The notes under the pieces: model-generated
Databases searched by the model: none
Told to the model about the DNA's origin: nothing
The model's input: the letters and a program-made list of their open reading frames with translations, nothing else
Position numbers and translations under genes: made by a program
Sequence record: OQ378934.1
Length of the DNA stretch: 64,000 bases
Strand: one strand, 5' to 3'
Origin: Escherichia phage LH2
Shown: positions 39,686 through 42,501 of the stretch, piece after piece
How positions within the stretch are numbered: the stretch's first letter is position 1
How the letters are laid out: each line of letters opens with the position of its first letter

Positions 39686-39705
39686 GTTAACAAAAAGGAA
39701 AAACG

Positions 39706-40041
39706 ATGTCTGAAGTACAACAGCTACCAATTCGTGCTGTCGGTGAATATGTTATTTTAGTTTCTGAACCTGCGCAAGCCGGTGATGAAGAAGTTACAGA
39801 ATCAGGACTTATTATTGGTAAACGTGTCCAAGGTGAAGTTCCTGAACTGTGTGTAGTTCACTCTGTTGGTCCTGATGTTCCTGAAGGTTTCTGCGAAGTT
39901 GGTGATTTGACTTCTCTTCCAGTTGGTCAAATTCGAAACGTTCCTCATCCTTTTGTAGCTCTGGGTCTTAAGCAGCCAAAAGAAATTAAACAAAAATTCG
40001 TAACCTGTCACTATAAAGCTATTCCGTGTCTTTATAAGTGA
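39706..40041 (+). CDS. 31: co-chaperonin gp31 (GroES analogue)
   Basis: 111-aa ORF (T4 gp31 is 111 aa) next to rIII. Confidence 0.9.
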
Positions 40042-40188
40042 TATAAATAATAATATGAATTGGGTGTCGGAATAATAAGTTAACCGAACAATTCTATGTG
40101 GTAGTCTACAACTGAGAGATCTGTCGAAAGAAGATGAAATTCAGAAGAACGTGACTACCGAGTTTTAATCTCTAACGAGAATTTTTAA

Positions 40189-40437
40189 ATGATTAAACAA
40201 TTACAACACGCTCTTGAACTGCAACGAAACGCATGGAATAATGGTCACGAAAACTATGGCGCATCTATTGATGTTGAAGCCGAAGCTCTTGAAATCCTGC
40301 GTTATTTCAAACATCTGAATCCTGCTCAAACTGCATTAGCCGCTGAGCTTCAGGAAAAAGATGAACTTAAATATGCTAAGCCTCTGGCTTCTGCCGCACG
40401 AAAAGCAGTTCGTCACTTTGTGGTAACACTGAAGTAA
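40189..40437 (+). CDS. rIII: lysis inhibition accessory protein RIII
   Basis: 82-aa ORF (T4 RIII is 82 aa) downstream of gene 31. Confidence 0.8.
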   Translation: MIKQLQHALELQRNAWNNGHENYGASIDVEAEALEILRYFKHLNPAQTALAAELQEKDELKYAKPLASAARKAVRHFVVTLK

Positions 40438-40835
40438 TTTATTGGAGAGTCACTGCCTTAGTGTGAAGTTAAAACGAGGAGCCGTCGAACTGTCTGATTA
40501 ATGATTTGCGAATCATTATAGTTTTAAGACCCCGGCAGTTTTACGGTGTACCTCTTGAATGTTATTCTTATAGCGGCAAGTGCATGCTACCCCGAGGTGA
40601 TGGCTAATCGGGAGTACGCCTCAAGGCCTATATATCCATCAGTATATATCTTATCCTCGAGAAATCGGACCCGGAACCTTTAAGCTAACGGTGTGCAACA
40701 GATAAGAGCTATAAGGTATGATGACGGGTTTATGGTTATCCTGGTCGTTAAATATTCAAAAACCTATGTTCCCCTTGAGGGCTTGCGCAGGCAATGCCAA
40801 TAAGTCCTGCATTTTCATTTAAAAGAGAATTTATA

Positions 40836-41012
40836 ATGGCAAAACAAGCTAAAGCAAAGAAAGCAGTTGAAAAGAAAGTTGGTGATTCTAAACGCGCTGG
40901 TTACAAGCGTGGGTCGAACTCTCGTATCAATCAAACTGTTGAGAAGATCATGCGCCGAGCACGTGCGGTTCTTCGAGATGATGCTTCTCGTTTTGGTAAG
41001 CAGAAAGCATAA
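40836..41012 (+). CDS. small highly basic protein (58 aa)
   Basis: MAKQAKAKKAVEKKVGDSKRAGYKRGSNSRINQTVEKIMRRARAVLRDDASRFGKQKA; strongly Lys/Arg-rich; followed by a strong terminator. Confidence 0.45.
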   Translation: MAKQAKAKKAVEKKVGDSKRAGYKRGSNSRINQTVEKIMRRARAVLRDDASRFGKQKA

Positions 41013-41017
41013 GTTAA

Positions 41018-41046
41018 GGACTCCTTCGGGAGTCCTTTTTTATTTT
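41018..41046 (+). terminator. rho-independent terminator (ggactccttcgggagtcc plus T-run)
   Basis: GC-rich hairpin followed by tttttatttt. Confidence 0.8.
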
Positions 41047-41100
41047 CCAAAGATTGCACAAAGTTGTTTACAGTATGGTTCCTTTGTGATAGTATTATCT
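41041..41100 (+). promoter_or_regulatory. T4-type early promoter (GTTTAC 41066-41071, TAGTAT -10 at 41090-41095)
   Basis: aagttGTTTACagtatggttcctttgtgaTAGTATtatcttacacaaacaaaggag. Confidence 0.6.
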
Positions 41101-41182
41101 TACACAAACAAAGGAGAATAAAATGAAAACGATTAATCGGGTTACGGTCATTGGGCTGATGTTGAAATTATAAGTATTAAAG

Positions 41183-41641
41183 ATGTCTGAATTAGAGATT
41201 AGAAGCAATTTTAGATGGCCATCATGTGCATTAAGCAATTTCGCCCAATGGCCTTTCGTTATGGATGGTATCCAATTTGGAGGTCTCGAAGGATTCCTCC
41301 AAGGATGTAAGGTGAAAAATGTTGAACACCAACGTCGTATATTTGGGTTATCTGGGCTTGCCGCCCAACAAGCTGGAAGGTCTTATGCTAGAGCTCAGGA
41401 CCGTGGCACGTTGTTCTGGCTTGGAACTCCGTTTTCAAGATACTCCTCAGCGTGGAAAGAATTATACACAAATGCATATTTTGAAGCAGCGTTCCAAAAC
41501 AAGGGCTTTCGTGATGCATTACAAGTCTCGAAAGGAAAAGTTTTGAAGCACAGCATGGCTAGTGGTCTAACAAAAGATGATACAATACTAACCGAAGCTG
41601 AATTTATTGATGTGTTAAACCTATTAAGAGACTCTCTATGA
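41183..41641 (+). CDS. NADAR (YbiA/DUF1768)-like protein, putative ADP-ribose-processing enzyme
   Basis: 152-aa ORF with the NADAR-type signature …LSNFAQWPFVMDGIQF…LEGFLQ… that parallels E. coli YbiA (…FSNFAAWPIKVDGKTW…SEHYFQAQKF). Confidence 0.55.
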   Translation: MSELEIRSNFRWPSCALSNFAQWPFVMDGIQFGGLEGFLQGCKVKNVEHQRRIFGLSGLAAQQAGRSYARAQDRGTLFWLGTPFSRYSSAWKELYTNAYFEAAFQNKGFRDALQVSKGKVLKHSMASGLTKDDTILTEAEFIDVLNLLRDSL

Positions 41642-42501
41642 AGCCTACTATTTTAACTGATATTGATGGAGTATGTTTAAGCTGGCAATCAGGTCTTCCT
41701 TATTTTGCTCAGAAATATAATCTTCCATTAGAACATATTTTAAAAATGATCCAAGATGAGAAATTTATTTCTCCGGGTAAACTCTTTAATTGTGATGAAG
41801 AACTTGGCGTCAAGTTAATTGAAAAATACAATCGTTCAGATTTTATTCGTTACTTGTCTCCGTATAAAGATGCCCTGTGTGTAATTAACAAATTAAAAGA
41901 AGATTATAATTTTGTAGCTGTTACAGCATTGGGTGATTCTATTGACGCTCTGTTAAATCGTCAATTTAATTTGAATGCTCTTTTTCCTGGTGCCTTCTCA
42001 GAAGTAATGATGTGTGGTCATGATTCTTCAAAAGAAGAGTTATTCAAAAAGGCAAAAGAGAAATATAACGTAATTTGTTATATTGACGATCTCGCTCACC
42101 ACTGTGACCACGCGAGTGAAATATTGAATGTTCCTGTTTATTGGATGGCTCGAGGAGAGCGTGACAATATTCCAAAAACTGCGCAGCGAGTTTATACATG
42201 GAATGATGTAGAAAATAAGCTTTTTTCGCCGAAGGAAAATAAAGAAAGTTTTGATAGTGAAAAAGCTATAAAAGATGTAATTGAGAAGATGGTTAAAAAC
42301 GATTCTTTTCGTTGGAACACTACCTGGAGAACTCCTGGATTTAATCCGTATAATCCATATTATACACATCCATATAATCCATATTATACACACCCGTATC
42401 ATATGAATCCATTCCATACGTGGAGTTATACTAAGCCTGGTGATGCAGGGTATTTTAATAGATTTACTAGTGGTGATAATATTTTCCAAGGAGCATTCTA
42501 A
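41638..42501 (+). CDS. HAD-superfamily hydrolase-like protein with Pro/Tyr-rich repeat tail (287 aa)
   Basis: N-terminal HAD motif I ILTDIDGV; C-terminus carries tandem PYNPYYTH repeats. Confidence 0.5.
   Translation: MKPTILTDIDGVCLSWQSGLPYFAQKYNLPLEHILKMIQDEKFISPGKLFNCDEELGVKLIEKYNRSDFIRYLSPYKDALCVINKLKEDYNFVAVTALGDSIDALLNRQFNLNALFPGAFSEVMMCGHDSSKEELFKKAKEKYNVICYIDDLAHHCDHASEILNVPVYWMARGERDNIPKTAQRVYTWNDVENKLFSPKENKESFDSEKAIKDVIEKMVKNDSFRWNTTWRTPGFNPYNPYYTHPYNPYYTHPYHMNPFHTWSYTKPGDAGYFNRFTSGDNIFQGAF
42349..42392 (+). repeat. 24-bp tandem duplication (2 copies) encoding the PYNPYYTH repeat
   Basis: tataatccatattatacaca occurs at 42349-42368 and 42373-42392 with a 24-nt period, in frame. Confidence 0.7.

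Follow-up and report, generated by a model that had tools for sequence, protein, structure and literature searches.

The window analysed here, 64,000 nt of Escherichia phage LH2 DNA (record OQ378934.1), carries between the lysis-inhibition gene rIII and gene 30.9 a 149-nt element, module A, that almost certainly represents a real structured RNA family not catalogued before. Sequences matching module A were found in 407-412 of 50,697 phage records, and a covariance-model search located a single copy in the window. The 398-nt gap in which it lies is a non-coding spacer of exchangeable structured-RNA modules with module A at its core. The coordinates of all features are collected in Table 1.

Parts of the gap are common to about 1,000 T4-like genomes when the same phage records are searched with BLAST. 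The carriers of module A itself comprise many Tevenvirinae genera of Enterobacterales phages and one unrelated Grimontviridae phage, and the element is confined to virulent phages of Enterobacterales. In most carriers, some 135-150 nt are kept at 92-99% identity; these include phages of Klebsiella, Enterobacter and Citrobacter with flanking genes that barely align by megablast. The most divergent carriers (Aeromonas phage PS49, Erwinia phage Cronus and EcS1) still retain 75-85%. Relative to Klebsiella phage Roth21, the module A core is 95.5% identical, compared with 74% for rIII and 66% for gene 31; the corresponding values for Cronus are 81.5%, 67% and 64%. Core positions that are unpaired in the fold described below are invariant in 26 of 53 cases, versus 27 of 82 for paired positions.

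The helices of module A were derived by eye from six and then from 24 distinct sequences, and pairs were counted afterwards. The final model comprises 47 pairs in eight helices. Across the 24 sequences, 95.7% of the cells hold standard pairs, and double (compensatory) changes occur in 29 of the 47 pairs. None of 500 shuffles reached any of five measures, and register-shifted controls, in which partners were slid by one to three columns, were 30-42% paired with 7-10 double-change pairs. G.U pairs are also present (for example, 21 U.G at one pair of hairpin H2 and six at one pair of hairpin H3), and they show that the RNA is read from the + strand. The helices of the model also appear in the minimum-energy and centroid folds.

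Helices P1, a, H2 and L form a four-way junction without unpaired linkers, wherein a is directly continuous with H2, H2 with L, and L with P1. The sequence of the closing helix P1 varies between lineages, as in the CAAACAG/CUGUUUG version of the Grimontviridae phage PKM.Lu.22.1. In the long arm, helix a leads by way of a conserved internal loop of 10/9 nt to hairpin H1, and six bases of the H1 loop pair with the entire 6-nt loop of H2. Three pairs of this kissing-loop helix covary, one being C-G in 16 sequences and U-A in eight, another G-C in 19, A-U in three and U-A in two, and the third G-C in 21 and A-U in three. Because the junction strands lack linkers, stacking of a on H2 and of P1 on L would let H1 fold back beside H2, a geometry that an intramolecular kissing contact would fit. 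The other arm, L, opens to a three-way junction formed with the GNRA-capped hairpin H3 (loop GAAA or GUAA in most sequences), helix b and the invariant strand GCAACA. This junction is the most invariant block of the element (ACCCGGA.CC ... GCUAACGGUGUGCAACAGAU).

Several other contacts were considered and rejected. A pseudoknot between GCAUG (40582-86) and UGUGC (40692-96) was dropped because the U-to-A change in Cronus that breaks it is exactly compensated in helix b, where A-U becomes U-A. Pairing of CCUU in the loop of helix b with AAGG (40623-26) showed no covariation, and inspection by eye revealed no k-turn consensus on either strand of the internal loop.

Table 1. Positions of module A, its helices and the neighbouring features in the window.
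Feature	Position	Strand	Remarks
Module A	40567..40715	+	149-nt structured RNA including closing helix P1; insertion relative to T4; model match 184 bits
P1	40567-40574 / 40708-40715	+	CUUAUAGC/GCUAUAAG; double changes in all 7 counted pairs
Helix a	40575-40577 (GGC) / 40626-40628 (GCC)	+	100% paired; C-G to U-A in fHe-Yen9-01, U.G in L038
Hairpin H1	40588-40595 / 40608-40616	+	Bulged A40613, 12-nt loop; 95.8% paired, double changes in 5 of 8 pairs
Kissing-loop helix	40598-40603 (UGAUGG, H1 loop) / 40636-40641 (CCAUCA, H2 loop)	+	6 bp; 100% paired in 24 sequences
Hairpin H2	40629-40635 / 40642-40648	+	6-nt loop; 99.4% paired, double changes in 4 pairs
Helix L	40649-40655 (UCUUAUC) / 40701-40707 (GAUAAGA)	+	Encloses three-way junction; 99.4% paired, double changes in 4 pairs; inverted repeat I1
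Hairpin H3	40657-40660 / 40665-40668	+	4-bp stem, GAAA (GNRA) tetraloop; 100% paired, double changes in 3 of 4 pairs
Helix b	40669-40673 / 40689-40694	+	Bulged U40692, 15-nt loop; 100% paired; G-C to A-U in fHe-Yen9-01, A-U to U-A in Cronus
Invariant junction strand GCAACA	40695-40700	+	3' of helix b
Gene 31	39706-40041	+	Upstream of rIII
rIII	40189..40437	+	Lysis-inhibition accessory protein; ORF; 100% identity to T4 rIII (tblastn); T4 annotation
rIII-30.9 gap	40438-40835		398 nt
Module F hairpin	40451..40463	+	CACU-GCCUU-AGUG; 5' part of spacer
A+U-rich hairpin	40499..40518	+	8 bp, tgcg loop; present in T4, T2, T6 and ATK47
Module B hairpin and tail	40716..40764	+	Stem 40721-40725 / 40744-40748; tail GUUAAAUA..CAAAACC; present in T4
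Module C hairpin	40772..40781 (about)	+	CCC-UUGA-GGG, then GCUUG; contains ccttgagg
Gene 30.9	40836..41012	+	58-aa basic protein; downstream neighbour; matches PHROG 1427, function unknown
Intrinsic terminator	41016..41045	+	9-bp stem, UUCG loop, T run

An earlier note, made from this DNA alone, had singled out the gap as an ORF-free, G+C-rich region with a short hairpin and a long-range complementarity, and had offered a structured non-coding RNA, a leader for gene 30.9 or a decayed insertion as explanations. Its literal features are all present where it placed them. The structured RNA is strongly supported, but the structure that supports it is another one, far larger than the two cited features; the main signal, namely the deep conservation and covariation of the 149-nt element, was not visible because only a single sequence was at hand. 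The elevated G+C content is real at the level of the gap (0.42, which ranks at the 94th percentile among 398-nt segments; the window as a whole averages 0.36), although the excess falls almost entirely within module A (0.47), with 0.38-0.40 in the flanking parts of the gap and about 0.43 in rIII.

Of the two cited features, the A+U-rich hairpin is present and conserved, with changes confined to the loop in VR5 and L076 and compensatory stem changes in one relative, L080 (TATCGATT-TACG-AATCGGTA), but it is located outside module A, and perfect 8-bp hairpins are not rare in this DNA (29 matches in the window versus 11 +/- 3 in shuffles). The segments cctcaagg (40619-40626) and ccttgagg (40773-40780) are indeed perfectly complementary, yet such a match is at chance level (three 8-mer pairs in the region versus 1.4 expected, p ~0.19) and is not conserved. 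T4 has the right arm and lacks the left, and Klebsiella phages have CCTCAAGG opposite CCCTTAGGGG. We therefore rejected this interaction; its left arm lies in the conserved internal loop of arm a-H1, with its last base (40626) in helix a, and its right arm forms the local hairpin of module C.

No ORF longer than 45 aa lies wholly within the gap, although small ORFs of 33-45 aa are present. GenBank records often place one to three 'hypothetical proteins' over module A (some are labelled 'terminator' or 'glycogen branching enzyme'), as at L002 2507-2632 (XNO93669.1). These protein calls are probably spurious because there is no conserved frame. No reading frame stays open across members, the divergent ones having one to five stops in each frame, and indels of 1, 2 and 7 nt separate members in steps that are not multiples of three. 

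These observations also bear on the idea that the element is not an RNA at all, and is instead a decayed gene, a set of small real proteins or a miniature inverted-repeat mobile DNA. The short ORFs and their annotation speak for proteins, and the 8-bp terminal inverted repeat together with presence/absence polymorphism speaks for a mobile element. This idea is already contradicted and is barely tenable, since substitutions in the helices are compensatory and include G.U pairs, and the 'terminal repeats' covary between lineages instead of being conserved. A mobile element would also have to be reconciled with a single copy per genome, one locus in Straboviridae and no bacterial copies. A decayed insertion or ORF, as the earlier note had it, is not supported, given the absence of a conserved frame, an element more conserved than the neighbouring genes and a T4 that looks like a state after loss of the cassette.

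The comparison with T4 locates module A as a discrete unit. The T4 gap is 244 nt long, and about 155 nt corresponding to module A are absent with nothing in their place. In T2 and T6, an unrelated module of about 45 nt, termed G, occupies the same junctions ('cttgaatgt | X | gtatgatgac'), as it does in ATK47 and several Gaprivervirus genomes. VR26, a sister of the Gaprivervirus genomes with the 45-nt cassette, carries the long element. The junction is thus a cassette site with at least three states, namely module A (149 nt), module G (about 45 nt) or nothing (T4). In the window, this junction ('cttgaatgt | X | (g)tatgatgac') spans 40559-40725, and it was compared in T6 (L105), T2 (L106), ATK47 (L003), L071, L076, L078 and L080. 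Module G has the sequence CTATCAYGCGTCAGAAAA..GTTATCTGT.TAAG.., and G-like sequences occur elsewhere in the spacer of L070, L082, EcS1 and L102.

Every Straboviridae locus with module A lies between rIII and 30.9, and rIII is the upstream neighbour of all Straboviridae copies. Exact-pattern scans recovered 17-21 loci in IMG/VR and 14 in metagenomes. Among 40 IMG/VR loci encoding rIII, 15 carry module A, and the covariance model run with filters off gave no match in the remaining loci (22 loci run). The element was absent from a set that represents 185,579 species of bacteria and archaea by a single genome apiece, from 5,426 complete E. coli genomes and from 72,556 plasmids. A degenerate two-anchor scan of IMG/VR for wider homologues returned only chance matches in G+C-rich coding DNA, and a match of a relaxed 3' pattern in L044 was likewise attributed to chance.

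The one carrier outside this group, the 76-kb Grimontviridae phage PKM.Lu.22.1, has a single copy at 84-85% identity. There (L006 1150-1420), module A lies 3' of an SSB-like gene and is followed by the module F hairpin, a strong terminator with a UUCG loop and a gene of the sigma-70 family. Modules A and F evidently moved together into this unrelated phage, where module A would reside in the 3' untranslated region of the SSB-like gene, just before the terminator. A weak promoter-like site for module A in this phage (TTGACG-N18-TAAATT) was disregarded; a transcript from it would begin within P1, and chance alone should give about 0.9 such sites.

Searches against known RNAs were made with the 4,227 models of Rfam 15, with the gathering threshold as criterion. 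A scan of 1.4 kb at E <= 10 gave no match inside the gap, and the isolated element (171 nt) scanned with the laxest filters gave only an 11.8-bit chance match to a sobemovirus frameshift element. The scan that the earlier note had suggested thus assigns no family to the gap, and no tRNA or tmRNA was found there. Matches below threshold to Atu_C8 and Phe_leader are caused by the terminator after 30.9. The view that the region fits no known T4 RNA family also held: there is no similarity to T4 rnaC and rnaD, and covariance model R1, run with filters off, had no match in the T4 tRNA region that contains them (69500-73500), in T2 or in T6. These two RNAs resemble module A as structured RNAs of the T4 group (119-139 nt) with unknown function, but they reside in the tRNA cluster and are matured with the tRNAs, and T4 has both while lacking module A. 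No description of module A was found in the literature, including PMC10690425, PMC11618068, 10.64898/2026.09.22.753630, PMC12152347 and PMC9697503, although the 2023 catalogue of 10,006 candidate viral RNAs (PMC10690425) could list it.

Other well-known RNAs share some of its traits. Large riboswitch aptamers, such as that for lysine with its kissing loops L2 and L3, SAM-I with its four-way junction and bent P2 arm, and cobalamin with its L5-L13 kissing loop, likewise measure about 100-200 nt. They too are closed by a P1 of variable sequence and have invariant unpaired bases at their junctions, covarying peripheral helices, a fold-back loop-loop contact and GNRA tetraloops. Module A differs in having no sequence or model similarity to them and no conserved expression platform, in lying 3' of a gene rather than in a 5' leader, and in preceding unrelated genes. 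A resemblance to the TPP and SAM-I cores (CUGAGA..ACCC and UCUUAUC..ACCCGG.AACC..AGAUAAGA) was set aside, as neither model matched and CUGA/UCAG is a covarying hairpin.

The phi29 pRNA is also a phage RNA of about 120-170 nt whose complementary loop-loop pairing was first recognised by covariation. However, its loops pair between molecules to form a ring on the portal, whereas an intramolecular contact would fit the geometry proposed for module A, which has no link to packaging genes; T4-type packaging is not known to need RNA. ROOL and GOLLD are elaborate conserved folds of unknown function on phage DNA, but at several hundred nucleotides they are far larger than module A, and neither family, although present in Rfam, matched it. 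Both form RNA-only multimers (10.1101/2024.12.08.627333). In a comparison with small RNAs that derive from a 3'UTR (3' untranslated region) and end at an intrinsic terminator with a U tail, PKM.Lu.22.1 has modules A and F followed by a strong terminator, and the next strong terminator of the window comes only after 30.9.

A further class of comparison is with ribozymes, since module A, with its compact fold of several junctions, the invariant bases at those junctions and its tertiary contacts, could process the rIII-30.9 transcript by self-cleavage or some other catalysis, and phages do carry small ribozymes. We consider this explanation very unlikely. No Rfam 15 ribozyme model, among them hammerhead, twister, twister-sister, hatchet, pistol, HDV-like and hairpin, matched at E <= 10 with lax filters, the element (about 150 nt) exceeds the small self-cleaving classes in size, and no candidate cleavage site was identified. 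A GAAA segment resembling an element of the hammerhead core is the loop of a covarying hairpin.

The window derives from a T4-like phage (Tequatrovirus), and the genes around module A are ordered cd, 31.2, 31.1, 31, rIII, gap, 30.9 and intrinsic terminator on the + strand. The 30.9 protein has no Pfam match. Neither a sigma-70-like promoter site nor a terminator-like site was found within the gap, the first terminator-like sites occurring within and just after 30.9; we therefore infer that the gap is co-transcribed with rIII and 30.9, its RNA presumably being made as part of their message. The terminator in Table 1 probably ends this transcript. A T4-type late promoter box (TATAAATA, 40042-40049) directly follows the stop codon of gene 31 and would yield a late transcript over module E, rIII, the spacer and 30.9. 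Some close relatives (UPWr_E4, SHFML-11 and G3F7) have an extra ~1.4 kb somewhere in 39700-41700, with a match that spans about 3.43 kb in two pieces, and this could be an insertion of the homing-endonuclease type.

Module A is surrounded by smaller modules, each present once in the window. Module F is conserved in T4, ATK47, Roth21, fHe-Yen9-01, KLB31 and PKM.Lu.22.1, and its stem variants CAC/GUG, CGC/GCG, UGC/GCA and AGC/GCU were read directly without a formal count. Module B has a 5-bp consensus stem with double changes in two pairs among 13 sequences, and its position relative to module A varies between genera. Its initial AUGAUG is conserved and starts mini-frames that differ greatly in length, with 3-19 codons in the relatives examined and 34 codons here (ORF 40718-40822); the peptides (for example MMWTL*, MMSWL* and MMS*) are not conserved and the nucleotides GUUGUAGGUUAUC are. 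The 3' strand of P1 overlaps the module B AUG in several lineages. The stem of module C, a small G+C hairpin, is kept while its loop varies (UUAG, UAUG, CUCGA), and the module lies upstream of A in Aeromonas phages PS49 and COW86c and downstream of A in Klebsiella phages. The order of modules is A-B-C here, B-F-A-C-E in Roth21 and C-A-B in the two Aeromonas phages.

Module E, a second conserved structured module, is located between gene 31 and rIII in the window (40098-40162) and, as seen at L002 2655-2718, consists of a closing stem, UACAAC, GAAA-capped inner hairpins and GAAGAACGUG. It lies upstream of rIII here, but in phages of Klebsiella and Citrobacter it immediately precedes 30.9. Its closing stem covaries (GGUAGUC/GACUACC, GGGAGC/GCUCCC and GGCGA/UCGCC).

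Conserved short non-coding modules have been described before in T4-type intergenic regions as PeSL cassettes, which are tied to indels and modular shuffling among close relatives (PMC2839356, PMC4122927). In a PeSL, a terminator-like stem-loop precedes an early promoter of the form TTTACW-N17-TAYWAT (PMC4122927). Module A is instead a 149-nt multi-helix RNA in a gap without a promoter-like site, and a true PeSL-like unit lies 3' of 30.9. There, at 41016-41095, a terminator (terminator part 41016-41037) is followed by TTTACA-N17-TAGTAT.

The variable setting of module A is relevant to the possibility that it is a cis-acting, riboswitch-like sensor, an aptamer whose P1 controls what lies downstream, be it translation of the module B AUGAUG mini-frame or access of Rho or RNase, and thereby expression of 30.9 or of the sigma-factor gene in PKM.Lu.22.1. 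Such a role would suit an architecture of the large-aptamer kind, with a short variable P1, unpaired bases that are invariant at multi-way junctions, a GNRA loop and a pre-organising kissing contact. In JS98, L022, EcS1, L013 and Merlin, moreover, module B begins with the conserved GUAUGAUG, into which P1 reaches with its 3' strand. However, the sequence 3' of module A varies: Tequatrovirus and some further lineages have module B there, the Klebsiella/Serratia type has module C, and PKM.Lu.22.1 has module F and a terminator. The genes downstream are unrelated (30.9 versus a sigma-70-family factor), the mini-frame peptide is not conserved, and neither a terminator/antiterminator pair nor conserved sequestering of a ribosome-binding site was found. 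The fold and pattern of conservation would equally fit protein-binding or catalytic RNAs, and we regard the sensor as unlikely. The narrower suggestion of the earlier note, a regulatory leader for 30.9, is similarly weakened, given that module A precedes a sigma-factor gene in another phage family and that the sequence between A and 30.9 varies by genus.

Alternatively, module A could be a passive, stably folded block that has no specific partner and serves to shield the rIII message against 3' exonucleases or to insulate the two cistrons. It always follows closely on a coding sequence, be it rIII or the SSB-like gene, which agrees with this proposal, as does a spacer in which hairpin modules are strung together and can be exchanged or deleted. 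Yet a stabiliser needs helices and not sequence, whereas module A keeps half of its unpaired bases unchanged from genus to genus and is far more conserved than the neighbouring genes. Its fold is also not especially stable. A passive role therefore appears rather unlikely.

The explanation that we favour, with moderate confidence, is an accessory RNA that folds by itself and binds a conserved partner. The specific mode of action, proposed only tentatively, is that module A is carried in a transcript and acts through its invariant bases on a conserved partner that is host-encoded or a small molecule. The transcript would be the rIII-30.9 message or, in PKM.Lu.22.1, an mRNA that has the element in its 3' untranslated region, and the element would fold autonomously. 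Its near-invariant junction and loop bases may then bind a conserved macromolecule of the host (Enterobacterales) or a small molecule, and not a phage protein, because module A moved to an unrelated phage without an accompanying gene. The benefit to the phage would be accessory rather than essential because T4, T2 and T6 live without the element.

Several points weigh against this proposal. The partner-binding step rests only on the pattern of conservation, the gene-less transfer and the restriction to Enterobacterales phages, and the loss from T4, T2 and T6 marks the element as dispensable in laboratory hosts. Transcription, and any processing to a discrete RNA, is inferred. The folding energy is ordinary (z = -0.57), and the effective sequence number of the alignment is only 1.27; covariation comes largely from about eight divergent lineages, and relatedness therefore inflates some counts. 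Furthermore, covariation proves the loop-loop pairing but does not separate an intramolecular from an intermolecular kissing contact.

A bolder reading, which we consider doubtful, is that module A is a new functional class of RNA in virulent Enterobacterales phages, a self-sufficient 150-nt cassette traded between unrelated phages. It could take three forms: an aptamer-like sponge or sensor that recognises a host metabolite or a nucleotide of immune signalling, a decoy for a host protein (a defence sensor, a ribonuclease or RNA polymerase), or an RNA that assembles through its complementary loops. If this reading is true, the neighbourhood of rIII would hold a dedicated 'RNA cassette site' that module A shares with the smaller cassettes B, C, E, F and G. 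Should the partner be a host defence or regulatory factor, the element would add to the few known cases in which a lytic phage has an accessory function based on RNA.

The genomes of T-even phages are among the best studied, yet a complex and near-invariant RNA in hundreds of their relatives seems to have been overlooked; its absence from T4, T2 and T6 is a plausible reason. The two junctions, tetraloop and kissing contact, the greater conservation of unpaired than of paired bases, conservation above that of the flanking genes and transfer without a gene are traits typical of RNAs that act specifically. Natural 'alleles' of the site exist (module A, the 45-nt cassette or nothing), phages carrying module A are held in public collections (the matching records include Paracelsus and AlbertHofmann, which belong to the BASEL collection), and T4 genetics permits clean swaps. 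For annotation, the calling of 'hypothetical proteins' on module A should cease, and an Rfam family could be made from the alignment and model presented here.

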